Shown here: positions 698 through 57,068 of the stretch, in pieces
How the letters are laid out: each line of letters begins with the position of its first letter
Numbering within the stretch: position 1 is the first letter of the stretch
IMG/VR virus record: IMGVR_UViG_3300035365_000057
Span: 1 to 64,000 of that record
DNA from: a virus
Lineage: Duplodnaviria; Caudoviricetes
Reading direction: 5' to 3' (one strand)
DNA length: 64,000 bases
Notes under the pieces: generated by a model
Database searches by the model: none
Seen by the model: the letters and a program-made list of their open reading frames with translations, nothing else
Told to the model about the DNA's origin: nothing
Position numbers and translations under genes: made by a program

Positions 698-967
698 TTA
701 TACCGTAGTTTCAGTTAATAATTCTTTAATTGCTTGCTGCAAGGGTACTACATAGAACTTGCTAACAATATCAATAATCTGTTTTGCGTATTCTTCAGAT
801 ACTTCTACTTCTCCTTCTGAGAAATAAATGTTTCTAGCTAATTCATCGAAACCGATATCATTTGTATTCTGTCTCATACGATTAGCTAACTCTTTACGAA
901 TATCAATTACTTGAGGTTCACCCTCGAAATTCATTTGTACTTTTACTTTAGAAAAATCTACTTTCAT
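698..967 (-). CDS. Hypothetical tail-region protein (89 aa)
   Basis: Complete ORF packed between tail genes. Confidence 0.7.
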   Translation of the reverse strand: MKVDFSKVKVQMNFEGEPQVIDIRKELANRMRQNTNDIGFDELARNIYFSEGEVEVSEEYAKQIIDIVSKFYVVPLQQAIKELLTETTV

Positions 968-1003
968 AATCTTTTTATTTAAAAATGTGTATTGTGTATT
1001 TAA

Positions 1004-4000
1004 TTAGTTATCAAAATACATATATTCTACCCAGTATGTACCATTTGAGATAAATATTCTTTTACCAATTGTGGTCCATTTATGAGAATATTTTATTGTA
1101 TTATTAAATAATTTTAGAGTACCTTTCAACGTTACACCAGAAGTTTTTAAGAAATTAAATATAAATATCTTACCTTTACTGCTAGATGGTGTAGGTAATG
1201 TTAATGTGATTGCACTAGAATTATTACATTCTATATAATCGTAATAAGTGTATAATTTCTAACTTGAATTTATTGATACAACATTCACAGTCAATCCGTA
1301 TATTTTTATAAGTTCTCCATTTCTAGCTTCTAATAATACATTACCGTGACTTTCTATGGCATATCCCTCAGTATTATTTAATACGCGTAAGCCATTTCCG
1401 TTAGTGCCGTATGTTGTAATATCTAATGCTATCGAACCATCTGCGCGTATTGCACACATAGCAGATGACAAATTACTATTTACTCTAAAAAACCTAGTAC
1501 CTGTAGAATCACCAATAGAAATATATGCACCAGGTGAAGAACTATCTGAATCGGATAAACCCTACTAATCGATTTTAAATGCACCGATCTTACCAGAAGT
1601 AGCATTAATGGTACCATTAAACGTGCCATCATTTGCAGTTAAGTTATTTAGAGTAACATTGCCAGAAGTATCTACAATAAACTTACCATTGATAACTGTT
1701 TTACCTACAAAGTCAATCTTCTCAGCATTTATTTCAACTGTGGTTGCTGTTTGATTTATATACGATACGATCTTATTTCCATCTTCTAATTCTTTATTAG
1801 CCCATAGTGTATTACCTTCAGAAGTGGTAACCCAGCCAGCAGCATTGATAATATCACCTTTACTATCAAAATTACCTGCAATTAAAGAAATATATTCATC
1901 TGTTTGCTATATCGCTGTTGCATTTGAAGTAGCTTTATTGTTTGCACTATTTGCTAAACTATAAGCACTATCTGCTCTATATGCTGCATCAGTTGCTTTC
2001 GAATAAGCAGTTGCTGCATCATCGGCGGCATCATCAGCTGCTATTTGTGCAGAATCAGCTGCTGTCTATGCAGAATTAGCTTTCTATGTTGCTGCTGCTG
2101 CAGCTGATGCTGCAGAAAGCGCAGCATTTTTGGCTGTTTTTATATCTTCTTCAGTCTATCCTTTAGCTGCCCACAAAGTATTACCTTCTGCTGTAGTAAC
2201 CCATCCCGCTGATTCTGCTTCAATAGCTTCAATTCTTCCGGTGTTGCTATTGACTTTACTACTAATACTAGTAACGTTAGATTCAATCTTTTCGGTATCT
2301 AACTTTATTTGTGCTACATCAGAACTAACGGTATTTGTTTTTCCTTCTAAATTAGTTATAGTGCTTTCATTCTTAGATACTCTTAATGTTATTGAATTTA
2401 TATCTAAGTTTATTTCTGATATCTATTTTGTTATCGTCTGAGTAGTCTGTTCTAGACCAGTAGTTTTGTTTTTTAATGAACTAATTTCATTAGTATTACT
2501 AGATACGCTAAGATTTATATTACCTATTTCAAGTTTTATTTGACTAATAGCTTCTTGCTATTTTGCATCAGTTTGTTCAAGATTATTAGTTTTATCTGTT
2601 ATAGTTACTATATCCTATTCAGTATTACTAACTCTTAATGATATTGAATCTATATTCAGATCTATTTCAGATACTTGTTTCTATATATTTGTAGTAGTCT
2701 GTTTGAGATTGTTTGTAGTATCCTTAAGTGTATTTATTTCAGTAGAATTCTATGTTATATTAAGATTAATATTATCAAGGCTTAATTTAATACTACTGAT
2801 AGTTTCTTCCTATTTATTATTTACTTTTTCTATACCATTGGTTTTGTCTACAAGAGTTGTTATGTTTGATTCTGTACTAGCAACACGTAATGTTATAGAA
2901 TCAAGATCCTATGATATTTCAGATACTTGCGTACTTATACTTGTTGTGGTTTGAGTAAGTTCTTCAGTTGATTCTTCTAATCCTGTGATACTTTCCTCAT
3001 TCTTTTCAAACCTGGTAGTAAATTCCTAAGCTGACAAAGTAAATTCACTATGATACTCTTCTAAAGTTTCGTCCAGATGTGTTACTTTCTAATCAAAAGT
3101 AATAGTCAATTCCTCTGCAGATAACTCTATTGCTGATGTATATTCTGAAGTTATTTCCTATTTAGCATCTGTGATCTTCTTATTAAAATCTACTGTTAAT
3201 TCTTCCGCAGATAAATTAATAGCCGATGTATATTCTTCGGTAATCTCATTCTTAGTATTAGTTATTTTTTTATCGAATTCTACTCTAAGATTTTCAGCAG
3301 TTAATTCTATCAATGAAGTATACTCGGATGTTATACTCTTTTTAGTATCCGTTATCTTCTTATCGAATTTTATTTCTAACTATTCTGCTGTTAATGTAAA
3401 TTCGCTATGATACTCTTCTAATTTTCCATTTATCTCTGAAATATTATGGTCAAATTTAATATTTAATTCTTCCGCGGTCAATCTAAACTCACTATGATAT
3501 TTTTCAAGTTTGCCATTTACTTCAGATATGTCGTGTTCAAACGATACTCTTAATTGTTCTGCAGTTAACTAGAATTCACTACGATATTCTTCTAATCTAC
3601 CATCAATTTCTTCAATACTGTGTTCAAACGATACTCTTAATTCTTCAGCAGTAAATAAGAATTCGCTATGGTATTCTTCTAGTTTATTAGATGTTTCAAT
3701 TATTTTATCGTAGTTAGCCTATATCTTTTCATTAGTAATCTATAACTGTCCGTTAATATATTCATTTAGATTACCTAAATCATCGTCATATAATATAACA
3801 GAATGGATTAAGATTTCTCCTGTAAAACTCAGATAAAAATCACCAGTACCATTCCATTTACCACTTATCTTTAAAGTATTAAAGATAGACGTAGGATTGA
3901 GTTGCTGTGTATAATTTATTTTCTCATATTCCTCAAAATCACCAGTATCTTCATTCTTAAAATAAATAGTAAGTATACCTGGTCTTAATACTTTATATCT

Positions 4001-4441
4001 AAATTGTATGTTAAATAATCTGGCTACCTTTTCATCAAATTCTGGATGTCTATCGTAGTCAGTGTTATATTGCATTATATAACTATTCTTAAGTTCTACA
4101 GCATTTCTATTATTCTCTTTAGTTAATGCTGTTATAGCTTCTTTATTAGAATAAAAATTGTTATTAAAATATAATAACTTTTGACTTACTCTAAATACTT
4201 TAATATTATTACCGTACTACCATTTATCCAGATTATTTGAAAATGATGCATTCGATAAATAATTGTTTAATGCATTTGTTTCATTAATAATATCAGATAT
4301 CTCAAATCTTAAATCTTCTATTAGAGATGTTATTAAGGAGGATCTAATTTTACCATTAGAATTTCCTTCCTAGAAAGGTAACATCTCATTACCAGTCAGT
4401 TTAGTACGTTCTGTAAGCTAACTAATTTTTTTATTTGCCAT
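1004..4441 (-). CDS. Large tail fibre / spike protein, about 1145 aa (TAG=Gln)
   Basis: Starts MANKKISQ(TAG)LTERTKLTGNEMLPF; first TAA at 1004. ORFs 3740..4075 and 1259..1471 are in this frame and end in TAG. Long coiled-coil repeats and a beta-rich C-terminus. Confidence 0.8.
3040..3690 (-). repeat. About 8 tandem 29-aa (87-bp) repeats in the tail fibre gene
   Basis: EEYHSEFxLTAEELxxxFxxxIxE units; equivalent positions at 3662, 3575, 3488, 3401 (87-bp period). Confidence 0.85.
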
Positions 4442-20987: not shown

Positions 20988-23033
20988 TTAAAACATATAT
21001 GCTTTTAAATCATCAGTATCGTCGTCACGAAACCAATTTTGTGTAAAAATAGGACCTTCAAATAGTACCCTATTTTTATTTTCTTTTTTAACTTCTTTTA
21101 CTTTAACATTATATAGCTGTTCTCTATATATCATTACTTGAGTCAACGCCATCACCCTATCGACGTTGTTGACGTCATTTGCAGCTATCAATTCCTCTAA
21201 TAGCGGTTCTGATAGGATGTTGTATAAGTTCTTCTTACCATCAGCATTGATATCATTTAACCAATCTTTTATCAGACCCCAACCCCACTATTTAATCTAT
21301 TTATTCATATGGCAACCTTTCTTACGTTGTACTTTGGAATTGCTAACAATATCGTTTATGATGTCCGGCTAATCTGCTAGTAGATAATCACAATGTTTAT
21401 TAGTAAAGTATACGAATATACCTTTATTCTGATTTTCATACATTGCCCGTGCATTATAGTATATCAGCAATTTTCTAACATTTTCATAGAATTCGTCTGC
21501 AGTTTTTGGTCTACCAGTATACTCTGCTACAATTATATCTGAATACTATTCTATAGACTAAACTCGCTTATATATAATACAAGAACCTAATGACGTAGTA
21601 CTAGATTCATCATAGTCGTATGAGTCTATACCAGCTATGTATAAACCAGTCGATGCTTCTTTATTTGGATGCTCCCATATTACTATAGAGCCTTCTGGAT
21701 TATCTTCTTTCTTTAACGGATAATGAGTTATATCACCACTCTTCTTTATAGTCCACCTCAAACTACCATCTGGTTCCCAAGTAAGATCACCGACCTGTTT
21801 ATAGTTTTTTAGATTCTTATTAGTTCTTAATAGTGCTAACTATTCCTATAATTCTTTTTTAGGGAATATATTACCATTAAATTCCAAACATGCCTCTGAT
21901 GGAGTGATACAGTGTTCTGCTACATATCTATCTATAGTATTACTATTTGTAGCATTTTCGATTACTTTTCTTCTTTCTTCTAGTATGAATTCTAAAGACT
22001 TTTTGTGCAGCGTATTACCATCATCGTCCATATATATTCTGTGACCTTCTTTATCACGAAAATCAAGATTGGTATACTACGGAATAAAGAATCCGCACTT
22101 CTTTGTAGTAGCTGATTCATCCCATATATTATCAAATTCTAGACAATTATAACCTTCTGGATTATAAAACATATCTTTTAGTGTCTCGAAATGGCTACCT
22201 TCATCACCACCAGTACCAAACGCAACCATAGTACCAAATGCAACACCATCCTGTTCTACAGACGGTCTGGCTATTTGCCATGCTGCGCCTAATTCTGAGA
22301 AAGAACCAGCTTCTTCAAATATAATTAACTTACCAGCTTTACCACGAACAATATCAGGATTGTCTTTCAAAGTAACACCTATGATTTCTGATTTATATCC
22401 TAATTCTACTTCATTACCATAATCATCTTTAGTAAAGAATCCAGCACGTTTACGCATCTAAGTGTTAACTGATCTTTTCTTACCCCAAGCAGTATTCTTA
22501 TCTATAAAGTTCATATAATCCCAAGCTTTAGTAAGTATACCATCTTCAGTAAGATATTGTTTATTAGAAGCGTATATATAGGTTTTTGAGTTGGGAATTA
22601 AATAATAATTACGGCAAGCCATTGCAGCATTCTTATAGGAATAACCCTTTCTACGACTCTTTAATGCACATAGATGTTTTCCTTCTTCTTCAGCTTGTTG
22701 CATAGCCTAAAAGAAATAGTAATCGTAATCATAGAAATCTGGGAATAATAATTCTCTTGTTTTTACTATTTTCTTTATACCATTTACTATTTTTTCTTTA
22801 TACACTATTCTCTAAATAGGACAATAGTTTAAATAAAAATAGTTATACCCACTGATGTAATCACCATCATCAGTAGTATAACCATCAATACATCTATTTT
22901 TTTCTCTATCCCAGAACTGAAAGAATTCCGATGTACCCTAAGGATATGAACAATACTAGCCAGTATTTATAAAGGTCAAAGCCGGCTGACGGAATTTATC
23001 ACTATTATGTATCTTTTTAGTAAAGTCAATCAT
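20988..23033 (-). CDS. terL: Terminase large subunit, 681 aa (TAG=Gln)
   Basis: KSRRKGYS Walker A, IIFEEAG Walker B, FGTGG, AGIDSY nuclease motif, DRVMA; five ORF fragments in one frame joined by TAG. Confidence 0.92.
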
Positions 23034-23924: not shown

Positions 23925-23962
23925 ACTCTGCTATCAGACTTCAAGTATGCAGTTTTTATTTG

Positions 23963-24034
23963 TCGCCCCAGTCTCGATTCGAACGGACAACTCGAAGGTT
24001 AGAGCTTCGCATATTACCTTTATACTATGGGGCA
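23963..24034 (-). tRNA. Amber suppressor tRNA (anticodon CUA, presumably Gln)
   Basis: TGCCCCA/TGGGGCG acceptor; CGAAG-CTCTAAC-CTTCG anticodon arm; TTCGAAT T-loop. Confidence 0.92.
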
Positions 24035-33399: not shown

Positions 33400-34680
33400 A
33401 TTATGAGTCAGGTATGACCTCATAAAGAGTTAGGTAACGCTAACATACCATATTACTATAGTTACTCTTCTAATGCAGCCAGATAAAGACAGTCACAAGC
33501 CTGTTTAATGCAGAGTGGAAGATCGTACGATTGAGTTTAGGTTTGACTCATAAAATAAAGTAACTAATCTTAAAGCAAGCAACGGAGAATAACGCTGTAC
33601 CAAAACAGAGGACAATGGTGCTTGACAGTATGACACTAACTGATAAATAATGTGTTGTGAAAATTAATTAAAATTCATGAATTTTACTCAAGCTATATAG
33701 TGTGAGTAAACGTACAGCCGCACGTTAGTGGGTTACAGTTCGTATTCTAGCAAGAAAAGAATATTGTATTGCCGAAAACTGGGGACATGTAAATAATACG
33801 TAGGTTCCGTACACATGTTGAAGAAACCAATCGAATAGTAAGCATAGAGAAATAGGCAAACGACCAGCCAAAATGGTAGTGCTTACAAATAAAAAAGATA
33901 AGAGAAAGTGATATCCGTGCATATATAGATATCTTAGTATAGTTAAGGCCTCAAGCTGCACTGAGCAAATATATTACACTTATCTTTATTAAACTCTTTA
34001 CTGAATTGCAGCCTAAATATGTCAAAGGTAGCGCATGAAAGTAAAGAGTTTCTACACTGTGAGAATCAGTGTCAACTTTGTGGGGCTTATATTTAGATGA
34101 GCGCACAAAAGTAAACCTATATTGTGTGTAGCATTTCGAAAAATTATATTTAAACTAGCTAGATAATTCGTAGAAAGAGTGATATCAGTATAGAGAGACT
34201 TTTGCATCTAATATTAGTGCAGAGAAATCAAAGACAAGATTATATCCTGAGTGTATAATCTAGTAAACTACTAGAGGCTGGTCACCTCGGCAGGAAAGCG
34301 CGACCATGGAGAGGTTTGTGGTAGTACCTCTCCGCTCTTTATGGTGAGAATCCATGACAAGCATGTGGGGCTTATATCTTTATGAGAGACAATACGGTAA
34401 AAATACCCTTCATAAAGTATTAGTGCGGACTTAAAAATCATGCAATGTAACAATTTACTTCTCAATCTCGCGTATAAATACTTCACGTTACAAATCTTGT
34501 TACATTTATTTGGGCTAAGTGTAGCCTAGTCATTAGCCACTTTATAAAACCTTCTTTCTTTTATGTAAAGATCTAGCATATTAGTCTGTGAAGATCGATA
34601 TGCTAGGTGCACTCATGAGATAACCTTCACGTGGTGAGTGTGTAAGTAAGGGTCTAACAAAACTTCCTATTCTACCCTGA
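33400..34680 (+). ncRNA. Structured non-coding region (unassigned RNA motifs)
   Basis: About 1.3 kb with no credible ORF; long-range helix 33405-12/33542-49 and repeated hairpin motifs. Confidence 0.5.
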
Positions 34681-34696
34681 AACTAATATCTCAAAT

Positions 34697-34781
34697 GCCC
34701 GAATGGCGAAATTGGTATACGCATTTCACTTAAAATGAAATATCCATACAGGGTGTGCGGGTTCGACTCCCGCTTCGGGTA
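34697..34781 (+). tRNA. tRNA-Leu(UAA)
   Basis: GCCCGAA/TTCGGGT acceptor; TTTCA-CTTAAAA-TGAAA anticodon arm; long variable arm; GCGGG-TTCGACT-CCCGC. Confidence 0.92.
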
Positions 34782-34830
34782 CAAACACTTTTAAATTAAT
34801 TTAAAGTTTAATTCATTAATTATCAAAATT

Positions 34831-37717: not shown

Positions 37718-38001
37718 CTTTTTTTATTTGTGTCACTTTACCTTTTTATGTTTTAAGTCATACTAGTCTGTGAGGATAGGTATGACGTCCTCAGAAGATG
37801 ACAAACCTGTGGGGCGTAAACTATGTCCTATTTTAAGAGTTAGGCTTGCATAACTCAGTAAATCAGGATGCAAGAACATAGTGATCGTGCGGACGTTAAA
37901 ATCAGGTACTCCAATAAGAAATAGTTTGACAGCTTATTTCTGCTTACGAGTTAAAACTAAAGTAAGATAGTCATATTAAAAATTAACAATAATGTAGATT
38001 T

Positions 38002-39034: not shown

Positions 39035-39549
39035 GCCAGAAAAAAGTAGAATTTAGAAATAAATTCAGAAAAGAAGTTTCAGACATGAACAAAAACATCA
39101 AACAAGCAGAAACTTCAATAAAAATCTTTGACGAAAAGTTCAAAAAGAGACCAAAGCATAAAAAAATGGAACCATACAAACGTGATAAAAAATTATGGAG
39201 ATAAAACAAGATTGCCCTACACAAGATAATAAAATCAACTGTAGTGAATGTAGTCATGAGTGTAAACTCAGAATACAACCAGAAATAGAAGCTAATTCGA
39301 ATTTGCCAGAGTCCGAATTAGCAACTATATATTACTAACTAAAACTTAGTATACATGGTGGATTCAGTCAACCTAAGAACTATTTTATAACCAGAATCCT
39401 AATGGAAGCCCAAAAGGCAAGAGTACAAGGGACCATACAACGGTCAACCAATTTATATTGGTCTGGAGAAGAGCAGGGGTTATCTACTAAATAAGACGTA
39501 CGAATAAGTAGAAATAGTTCTTTTTATTTAAAAATCAAAATTAAAAAAC

Positions 39550-40352: not shown

Positions 40353-40689
40353 CAAATAAAAGAGGCTCCAAACTTAGAATCTTTGAATCAATAGTTAATG
40401 TATGTCTACGCGTGAAAAAAGTACGGTGTACAAAGCACGGCGGTACAAAGACCTGAATTAACAGGTCTCATGCAGAATCTTTGAATCAGCCATGAGGAGC
40501 TACCGTGAACCACTGATCATGAGTCTGAGATCGCGACAATAAGATTGTCCTCTAGCAATAGAGAAAAGCTTTAGTCGTGATATCAAGTCAGACAGAATAT
40601 GCAGAATCTTAGAATCTGTATATAGTAATAAATATGCTTTATACACATATTCGTATATTATCAAGATCAGAATTATAGGACTAACCATC

Positions 40690-41000
40690 CTAAGACCAAA
40701 TAAGGCTAGTAACTTTGGTCGGTCACTAGCCTACTATTGACTGTTAGGTCATTATACAATCGTTAAGACGGGGCTCTCGGATGCCCCTACCTCCACTAAG
40801 TAATGTTTACGTAATTAATTTACACAAGAAACGTTCTATTTTATGTATATTATATTAAGGGGGTAAACGGTTTTTGATTAGCGATGAGATGTAGTGAATA
40901 GGTCAATAAAGCCGATAAATGGCAAAACTTTCGTAACAGACTACACTCGTATCGCCGCAGCGTGATACAGGAAGTCAACGGCTAAGCTAATGTCGTAAAA
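40690..41000 (+). ncRNA. ssrA: Circularly permuted (two-piece) tmRNA
   Basis: 3' acceptor piece (GAC-GGGGC-loop-GCCCC-TACCTCC-A, ends 40795) precedes the 5' piece (GGGGGTA at 40859). 7-bp acceptor stem with G3.U70; multi-segment inter-piece helix; H-type pseudoknot; tag GKTFVTDYTRIAAA-TGA at 40921-40965. Confidence 0.88.
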
Positions 41001-41006
41001 AGCTGG

Positions 41007-41062
41007 AGTAGGGAGGTTACCTAGATTAAGTTCTATGGGGAGTTCGATTCTCCCCTCTACTA
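41007..41062 (+). ncRNA. Minimal tRNA-like element (acceptor stem + T arm, no D arm)
   Basis: AGTAGGG/CTCTACT-A with GGGAG-TTCGATT-CTCCC; only 24 nt between them. End coordinate approximate. Confidence 0.55.
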
Positions 41063-42457: not shown

Positions 42458-43021
42458 ATGACAGAGAAAGATAAACAAGAAGTATCTGACCTGATCAAAC
42501 AGGCTAAAGAAGGTAAACAAATTGCCTTCTCAAAACTTTACGAAATGTTCAAAAGACCTCTTTATATTACTATCATTAAGATAGTCAATAATAAAGACGT
42601 TGCAGATGATATCTTATCAATGGCATTCGTAAAGGCGTTTACTAAACTAGATAGTTATGTAAACGATATTTCATTTGAATTATGGCTAAAAACAATAGCT
42701 ATAAATAGTAGTATCGATTATATACGTAGGTATAAGAAAGACTCAAGCTTATATTGGATTGATGATGACGAGAATTGTAACATTCAGTTGGGTAGTACTG
42801 CAGATTACTCTCCTGAAGAAGATTATATCTTCAAAGAAACCGATTCTCGTTTATCAGAAGCTTTTAGTAGATTGAGATTCAAGTATCGAAATATACTCGA
42901 ACTACGAACCGTTCAAAATCTCTCTTACAAAGAGATTTCAGAACAGTTAGGCCTTAGTGAAAGCCAGGTAAAATCCACGCTCAACAAGGCTAGAGAGAAA
43001 TTAAAACAATTGTTAAACTAA
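42458..43021 (+). CDS. ECF-type sigma-70 factor
   Basis: Region 2 (DDILSMAFVKAFTKLDSY...WLKTIAINSSIDYIRR) and region 4 (LSYKEISEQLGLSESQVKSTLNKAREKL). Confidence 0.9.
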   Translation: MTEKDKQEVSDLIKQAKEGKQIAFSKLYEMFKRPLYITIIKIVNNKDVADDILSMAFVKAFTKLDSYVNDISFELWLKTIAINSSIDYIRRYKKDSSLYWIDDDENCNIQLGSTADYSPEEDYIFKETDSRLSEAFSRLRFKYRNILELRTVQNLSYKEISEQLGLSESQVKSTLNKAREKLKQLLN

Positions 43022-56992: not shown

Positions 56993-57068
56993 TGTGGTTT
57001 AGCTCAGTGGTAGAGCGACAGTTCTTAGTAAGCTGTAGGTCGTAGGTTCGAATCCGGTACAACCACGG
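56993..57068 (+). tRNA. Atypical tRNA (Thr-like scaffold; loop TCTTAGTAA, anticodon ambiguous)
   Basis: TGTGGTT/AACCACG acceptor, canonical D arm, ACAGT/GCTGT stem with 9-nt loop, 2-nt bulge in the T stem. Confidence 0.65.

Follow-up and report, generated by a model that had tools for sequence, protein, structure and literature searches.

A genuine, phage-borne, circularly permuted tmRNA gene lies at positions 40677-41062 (plus strand) of a 64,000-nucleotide stretch of viral DNA (positions 1 to 64,000 of IMG/VR record IMGVR_UViG_3300035365_000057; hereafter the window). Read directly from the window sequence, the tRNA-like domain is encoded back to front, its 3′ half ahead of its 5′ half, and the two pieces can pair as a tRNA-Ala-like domain with a G3.U70 pair and discriminator A73. 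We consider it highly probable that this is a functional two-piece tmRNA gene of a family found in Suoliviridae crAss-like phages, and a role in trans-translation is likely. An earlier, sequence-only reading of the window had listed the main features of the gene, all of which are present where it had placed them. The sequence, an Rfam permuted-tmRNA model and the relatives bear out its account: the phage encodes a permuted tmRNA whose acceptor has G3.U70, whose acceptor piece contains a pseudoknot and whose resume codon is a Bacteroidota-like glycine codon. It knew of no such gene in a crAss-like phage, but at least five Suoliviridae relatives have a 'transfer-messenger RNA, SsrA' in their RefSeq records, and ARAGORN calls these genes permuted. 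The window copy is a divergent member of a family present in public annotation and not a new discovery.

Architecture of the two-piece gene

All elements of the gene lie on the plus strand. An acceptor piece, comprising a pseudoknot, the 3′ strands of P2, the T arm and the 3′ strand of the acceptor stem, is followed by a 63-nt spacer and then by a coding piece that holds the 5′ strand of the acceptor stem, a D-loop analogue, the 5′ strands of P2, the tag frame, helix 5 and a conserved hairpin. The total RNA is ~250 nt, as against ~395 nt in hosts.

Directly 5′ of the pseudoknot, a small hairpin can be read from the sequence (AGGA-CTAACCA-TCCT, 40677-40691). In 25 of 105 relatives the loop CTAACCA recurs 5′ of the gene, on a stem with compensatory changes (GAGAA/TTCTC versus AGGA/TCCT), and the hairpin may mark the 5′ boundary of the acceptor piece or serve in processing. 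The H-type pseudoknot occupies the PK4 position (40694-40732), and both of its stems pair perfectly (S1, 40694-700/40714-20; S2, 40703-10/40725-32). At least eight different S2 sequences occur among relatives, all of them able to pair. The number of loci with the pseudoknot varies with the search pattern, from 24 to 35 of 105, and cr114_1 and cr115_1 lack it. On this comparative evidence, the upstream pseudoknot is real yet dispensable.

The 3′ strands of P2 (40736-40766; P2c 40736-42, P2b 40750-56, P2a 40759-66) were placed by cofolding, covariation and the Rfam alignment, and pair with strands in the coding piece. In P2a, ATCGTTAA (40759-66) pairs with TTAGCGAT (40878-85), and in P2b, CATTATA (40750-56) pairs with TGTAGTG (40890-96). 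For the distal end, the sequence-only reading had drawn two helices, TCAATA/TATTGA and AATAG/CTGTT. A pairing region is present there, but the family is best fitted by GGTCAAT (40901-07) with ATTGACT (40736-42), which overlaps both; the columns of this helix (P2c) are invariant, so that variation offers no choice of register. A GAC linker and the T arm follow (40767-40787), with the stem GGGGC (40770-74)/GCCCC (40783-87) closing an 8-nt loop, TCTCGGAT (40775-82). The acceptor 3′ strand TACCTCC (40788-94) and discriminator A73 (A40795) end the piece (40788-40795). All seven positions of the strand pair with GGGGGTA (40859-65), giving a 7-bp acceptor stem that includes G3.U70, and CCA is not encoded (A-CTAA).

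The intervening segment (40796-40858) is A+T-rich, and processing is predicted to excise it from the precursor. Relatives have segments of 15 to ~600 nt here, and that of cr114_1 holds a tRNA-His called by ARAGORN. In cr56_1 (L003) and cr113_1 (L007), an endonuclease gene is annotated on the opposite strand inside the tmRNA gene region (locus 751-1332, minus strand). The parsed intervening segments of cr56_1 and cr113_1 are ~600 nt, and MT835588.1 (L008) has an equally long segment (601 nt) that carries no annotation.

The 5′ end of the coding piece (40859-40907) consists of the acceptor strand, the D-loop analogue (40866-77) and the 5′ strands of P2a, P2b and P2c. The resume codon follows P2 after only 13 nt (40908-40920), too short a stretch for pseudoknot 1 (PK1), which is missing. 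PK1 is important in E. coli tmRNA, and Bacteroidota tmRNA has ~60 nt, including PK1, at this position, whereas all phage relatives have 11-13 nt; because the absence is family-wide, it marks a variant family and does not exclude the window copy. The tag frame (40921-40965) runs from GGC at 40921 to GCG at 40962, with the stop codon TGA at 40963-65, and encodes (A)GKTFVTDYTRIAAA. Around the tag end and stop codon, cofolding places a helix 5-like hairpin (40945-40975; 40945-47/40973-75 and 40949-53/40964-68). The predicted 3′ end of the coding piece (40977-41006) comprises the 20-mer AACGGCTAAGCTAATGTCGT (40977-96), which contains a hairpin (40978-82/40992-96) that is a possible PK2-like element, and the tail AAAAAGCTGG. 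The 20-mer is present in all 13 GenBank relatives recovered by blastn; it also served as a search pattern, which puts its hairpin beyond the reach of covariation.

Relatives and covariation

ARAGORN reports three tRNAs in the window, including tRNA(CUA) at 23962-24034, and neither ARAGORN nor Rfam at gathering scores gives a tmRNA there. The permuted model RF04321 (tmRNA_permuted) aligns to 40736-40965 end to end with 38.7 bits, below its gathering score of 47 (E = 4.7e-6 on 1 kb; 8.4e-8 on the 76.5-kb genome record). The computational check that the sequence-only reading had proposed, ARAGORN together with permuted tmRNA models, therefore came out mixed: ARAGORN was silent, and RF04321 matched at full length though under its cut-off. 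Both misses are likely due to the 8-nt T-loop. When the two predicted pieces were folded together with RNAcofold, the acceptor stem, P2a-c, the T arm, helix 5 and the 3′ hairpin were all reproduced.

A blastn search of phage records returned 13 Suoliviridae crAss-like genomes with 74-86% identity over the coding piece, and in five of these (cr114_1, cr115_1, cr125_1, cr52_1 and cr60_1) RefSeq annotates 'transfer-messenger RNA, SsrA' at the matched place. ARAGORN finds a permuted tmRNA with a homologous tag in all five, as well as in cr50_1, cr130_1 and cr131_1, and the tags it gives for RefSeq-annotated relatives are GNFYVTDYTRIAA, GNTSYIMNYSRIAA, GNTSYVTDYTRLVA and GNTSYVMDYTRLAA. Relatives score 50.9, 50.3, 60.3 and 54.4 bits with RF04321, above the cut-off. 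Searching IMG/VR with the 20-mer yielded more than 115 viral contigs of ~60-100 kb among the matches listed. The window and its relatives have in common the 20-mer and the invariant blocks ATTGACTGTTAGGTC and GAATAGGTCAAT.

Covariation was assessed in a MAFFT alignment of 58 sequences (A1), and acceptor and tag counts were taken from a direct parse of 105 loci. In the parse, the acceptor stem occurs in nine versions and is paired at 7/7 positions in 105/105 loci; G1-C, G2-C, G3.U and A73 never vary, and compensatory changes occur at positions 4-7. The same helix is only 62% paired in A1, where MAFFT put G1 of the window one column off, and the direct parse gives the valid count. Across the whole structure the covariation score is 0.214, compared with 0.073 in shuffles (0/500 reach 0.214) and no more than 0.107 when registers are slid. 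Pairing of the T stem is 100% across the 58 sequences, with compensatory changes in all five pairs. Compensatory pairs were also found in P2a and P2b, in line with the pairing between pieces that had been read from the sequence, and P2c and the 3′ hairpin never vary.

More than 100 genomes conserve the tmRNA gene, and they look like those of lytic-type crAss-like phages. Given this conservation and a permuted order that host genes do not have, we rejected the idea that the locus is what remains of the attachment site of an integrated element.

Genomic neighbourhood

Upstream of the tmRNA gene lie a RAGATH-9 RNA (39364-39522, plus strand, 133 bits) and a diverged RAGATH-20-like RNA (40450-40532, plus strand, 31 bits) with the conserved 3′ sequence CCACUGAUCAUG...GAUC. 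Relatives have RAGATH-9, RAGATH-20 or RAGATH-7-assoc RNAs at the same place, and the RAGATH-9 RNA of cr115_1 abuts the acceptor piece. Homology, the invariant blocks and this RAGATH neighbourhood all place the window copy within the family.

Farther upstream, three Hatchet self-cleaving ribozymes were identified on the plus strand (34050-34233, 34335-34443 and 37787-37907; 78.9-99.2 bits, cut-off 51). Two of them lie just upstream of tRNA-Leu(TAA) (34697-34782), an arrangement that suggests ribozyme-assisted processing of a polycistronic RNA. A tRNA match at 56994-57066 (plus strand) was found by Rfam only, at 37.2 bits, with ARAGORN silent. About 1.4 kb downstream of the tmRNA gene, in the standard-code block, is an ECF-type sigma factor of 187 aa (Sigma70_r2, r4_2; 42458-43021, plus strand). 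It was the only Pfam match among ten neighbouring ORFs, none of which gave a translation-related hit.

Tag frame and amber recoding

The tag frame is open in 105/105 loci. Its 32 nucleotide variants encode 18 peptides of 13-14 aa, and all indels are multiples of three, a pattern by which the tag is under constraint at the level of the peptide. Tags end in TGA (68 loci) or TAA (37 loci), and TAG occurs neither within nor at the end of any of them. Helix 5 shows partial covariation, with compensatory changes in three of its five inner pairs, and it is kept among relatives together with the resume context.

The sequence-only reading had described an amber-recoded genome, and for the late genes it was right: large minus-strand ORFs of the window carry 9-24 in-frame TAG codons each, plus-strand ORFs carry none, and the tRNA(CUA) suppressor (23962-24034, minus strand) sits beside the late-gene block. 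With TAG confined to minus-strand ORFs, the window is recoded block by block, and the tmRNA gene falls in a standard-code block. The same reading went on to propose a private rescue RNA tied to recoding, which would free ribosomes stalled at UAG while TAG turns from stop to Gln and would for that reason end its own tag in TGA. We regard this link as improbable. The recoded late genes and their tRNA(CUA) are consistent with it, as are the avoidance of TAG in all 105 tags and the 3-17 in-frame TAG codons in TerL of every close tmRNA-bearing relative with a TerL homologue (10/10 from RefSeq and 48/48 from IMG/VR). These 58 recoded relatives form one clade, however, and so represent a single evolutionary event. 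Outside that pattern, cr50_1 (Boorivirinae) has a homologous permuted tmRNA gene (60.3 bits, tag GNNFVTDYTAIGA) and no in-frame stop in either TerL or the adjacent late gene (portal by the cr130_1 annotation), so the expected co-occurrence with recoding breaks down for these two late genes. The TGA stop is not telling either, as the sampled tags of Bacteroidota hosts also end in TAA or TGA, and avoidance of TAG is therefore not special to the phages. Finally, tmRNA acts where a ribosome has reached the end of a truncated mRNA and its A site is empty, and a ribosome stalled at an internal UAG would not be a direct substrate.

Of the ten outgroups to which cr50_1 belongs, cr130_1 and cr131_1 are recoded and have the tmRNA gene. 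No tmRNA gene was found in the non-recoded cr55_1 and ProJPt-Bp1 or in four Steigviridae/Intestiviridae phages, and a third late protein (window 1004-4441) had no homologue in the outgroups. From this distribution, the gene is a Suoliviridae trait and not bound to recoding. In many relatives (cr53_1, cr56_1, cr118_1, cr131_1 and many IMG/VR genomes) TerL lies in two to three separated pieces, which suggests introns, inteins or inserted genes; the window copy (20988-23033) is continuous.

RNA processing and proposed action

Downstream of the coding piece lies a tRNA-like element (41007-41062, plus strand). It has an acceptor stem (AGTAGGG 41007-13/CTCTACT 41055-61), a T arm (GGGAG-TTCGATT-CTCCC, 41038-54) with a canonical TTCGATT loop and a discriminator A (41062), and only 24 nt replace the D and anticodon arms. 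An element of this kind stands at +10 after the 20-mer in most parsed relatives, with covarying acceptor and T stems, and in a few of them the 20-mer is followed by a tRNA that ARAGORN recognizes (Ile-GAT in five loci, Leu-TAA in cr60_1). Folded alone, the window element is no better than shuffles (z -0.58), so that its support is comparative. The flanking tRNAs and tRNA-like elements suggest processing by RNase P, and cleavage at the window element, a putative target of that enzyme, would define where the coding piece ends.

We propose a single precursor transcript that covers the gene together with the plus-strand standard-code block. Cuts by host RNase P at G40859 and at the tRNA-like element (41007) would release a coding piece of ~148 nt, and the acceptor piece would be finished at A40795 by host 3′ trimming and CCA addition. 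Host AlaRS would then charge the RNA through G3.U70, and host SmpB would deliver it to ribosomes stalled on truncated mRNAs. The nascent chain would gain the phage tag AGKTFVTDYTRIAAA, the C-terminal Ala-Ala of which resembles host degradation tags. The likely benefit would be extra or altered ribosome rescue while the phage infects its host and non-stop complexes arise through mRNA decay or through host defences that cut RNA.

A decoy could act on the same host factors: the RNA would sequester SmpB or AlaRS, or would block host trans-translation by competing with the host's own tmRNA. A minimal RNA without PK1 (~250 versus ~395 nt in hosts) would suit such a role, no SmpB (PF01668) was found in the 76.5-kb phage record, which is 77% complete, and the odd T-loop may alter function. 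A pure decoy, however, needs no tag, and the peptide-level constraint on the tag (an open frame in all loci, in-frame indels and synonymous variants that collapse 32 sequences to 18 peptides) argues against it; helix 5 and the resume context are conserved as well. We consider the decoy slightly less probable still than the recoding link, and favour a trans-translation role for the window tmRNA.

The 8-nt T-loop

The canonical tmRNA T-loop has 7 nt (TTCRANY type), and contacts between the T-loop and D-loop matter for the tmRNA elbow and for SmpB binding. The window T-loop, TCTCGGAT, has 8 nt and is unique among the 105 loci, most relatives having TTCGAnT. In a sister clade (cr109_1, cr56_1, cr113_1 and others), at least 13 loci have an 8-nt loop, TATCGTAT or TATCGTAA, on a T stem that covaries (GGGGC, GTGGC, GAGGC). 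ARAGORN missed all five sister-clade loci scanned (L003, L004, L007 and L008 among them). Other lineages have non-canonical T-loops (TTCGCC, GGCAGTA, TTTGATC) coupled with changes in the D-loop GG, which the window retains. The 8-nt loops and covarying stems of the sister clade argue that such loops are tolerated under selection, and the comparison as a whole suggests that T-loop variants reflect tolerance and not decay.

This bears on whether the window copy is itself decaying, that is, a disabled member of a functional family whose T-loop has taken up an inserted nucleotide. The silence of ARAGORN, the sub-threshold Rfam score and the single occurrence of the loop among 105 loci would fit, but the other elements are intact (7/7 acceptor pairs, G3.U, the P2 helices, an open tag and all invariant blocks) and a similar 8-nt loop is kept by the sister clade, making decay the least probable of the alternatives and a very unlikely one.

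In four IMG/VR relatives (L015, L036, L052 and L075), several hundred nt interrupt the permuted tmRNA gene within the T arm, and in L015, L036 and L075 the break comes after GGGTT, inside the T-loop. A group I intron (RF00028, 77-97 bits) is present at each of the four loci. Permuted and intron forms thus appear combined in one tmRNA gene. T-loop position-3 introns in tmRNA have been reported only in Bacteroidia (PMC11915505).

Origin and comparison with known tmRNAs

The RefSeq Suoliviridae tmRNAs (cr114_1, NC_055897.1 19180-19622; cr115_1, NC_055898.1 42525-42886; cr125_1, NC_055900.1; cr52_1, NC_055888.1; cr60_1, NC_055891.1) share with the window gene the permuted order, the invariant blocks, related tags (VTDYTRIAA core), the lack of PK1, a tRNA or tRNA-like element directly downstream and RAGATH-9/RAGATH-20 RNAs upstream. 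Unlike them, the window has an 8-nt T-loop, the GGGGGTA/TACCTCC acceptor, one more Ala in the tag (IAAA) and a downstream element cut to a minihelix with a 24-nt insert. It also retains the upstream pseudoknot, unlike cr114_1 and cr115_1.

To our knowledge, permuted tmRNA is not known in the host phylum, Bacteroidota. The phage sequences are close to Bacteroidota tmRNA in both halves of the tRNA-like domain and in the resume context. Most phage relatives have the 5′ motif GGGG-N6-GGTTTTGACAGCG, which beyond them is almost restricted to tmRNA genes of Bacteroidota: when 185,579 species genomes were scanned with it, nearly all hits came from that phylum. The genes matched there are one-piece tmRNAs in standard order, ~395 nt long, and their tag is GENNYALAA or GNNNFALAA. 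Two matching contigs outside the phylum, from a 'Clostridium sp.' MAG (L196) and a 'Limnohabitans sp.' MAG (L210), carry a typical Bacteroidota tmRNA with tag GENNYALAA and were probably binned into the wrong genome. Besides the 5′ motif, the window gene and one-piece Bacteroidota tmRNA (RF00023; Parabacteroides, Bacteroidaceae) share the 3′ half ...GTTTGGACGAGGGTTCGACTCCCTC-NNGCTCC-AC, a GGC (Gly) resume codon after ...AA(C/T)T and an apparently unencoded CCA. Where the host gene has the standard order and PK1, the phage gene is permuted, ~40% shorter and without PK1, and its tag is longer, at 13-14 aa with the core (V/I)(T/M)(D/N)Y(T/S), VTDYT in the window.

Two-piece tmRNAs are established in Alphaproteobacteria, some Betaproteobacteria and Cyanobacteria (Keiler et al. 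2000, Sharkady & Williams 2004, as cited in PMC9004378 and PMC11915505), and the tmRNA database paper recognizes three main permuted clades (PMC11915505). The phage gene resembles these in its permuted order, a tRNA-like domain built from two RNAs, a removed segment and an internal tag frame. It is not a member of any of the three lineages, differing from them in its Bacteroidota-like tRNA-like domain and resume context and in lacking PK1. Of the lineage models (RF01849, RF01850 and RF01851; RF04321 is the merged model), RF01850 (beta_tmRNA) gave only a partial match to the tRNA-like domain (22.7 bits, cut-off 84), and RF01849 and RF01851 gave none.

Phage-encoded permuted tmRNAs are a known category. 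The marine phage Melnitz and pelagimyophages have two-piece tmRNAs, and 53 of 133 unique phage tmRNAs are two-piece (PMC9004378). The marine genes belong to the alphaproteobacterial type and were in permuted form when captured, and that of Melnitz carries a glutamine riboswitch, whereas the crAss-like gene is apparently a separate permutation of Bacteroidota tmRNA. The Bxz1-group tmRNAs and the tRNA-like-domain-only RNA of mycobacteriophage DS6A, for which a decoy role has been proposed (PMC4131195), are likewise phage-borne tmRNAs or fragments that depend on host SmpB, but they are one-piece or have no tag frame and are unrelated in sequence to the crAss-like gene. Our literature search found no paper describing the crAss-like family, and the phage two-piece tmRNAs in it came only from marine phages; the accessible part of the supplements of the tmRNA database paper (PMC11915505) held no mention of phages that we could find.

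The Bacteroidota-like tRNA-like domain and resume context suggest a separate origin of the permuted form. By sequence comparison, the family looks like a separate permutation of Bacteroidota tmRNA, minus PK1 and ~40% of its length. For the fuller proposal, the evidence leaves us evenly balanced: it would hold that this is a separate, undescribed two-piece origin from the one-piece tmRNA of Bacteroidota, with an RNA of ~250 nt without PK1, ends set by flanking tRNAs or tRNA-like elements, T-loop/D-loop corners that tolerate change, and re-tagging of stalled proteins with a 13-14-aa degron of the phage's own. As a weaker addition to this proposal, the gene may bring extra benefit in TAG-recoded phages.

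Implications

For the window, the practical gain is that the gene can be annotated correctly and that a connection to stop-codon recoding, which the evidence does not support, is dropped. Because standard finders (ARAGORN and the Rfam cut-off) miss tmRNA genes with an altered T-loop, phage tmRNAs are undercounted. As a natural minimal tmRNA, made of two pieces, without PK1 and with a variable elbow, the family could be used to study what trans-translation truly requires. It also raises the question of why phages that are abundant in the human gut carry a ribosome-rescue RNA and a distinct tag of their own.
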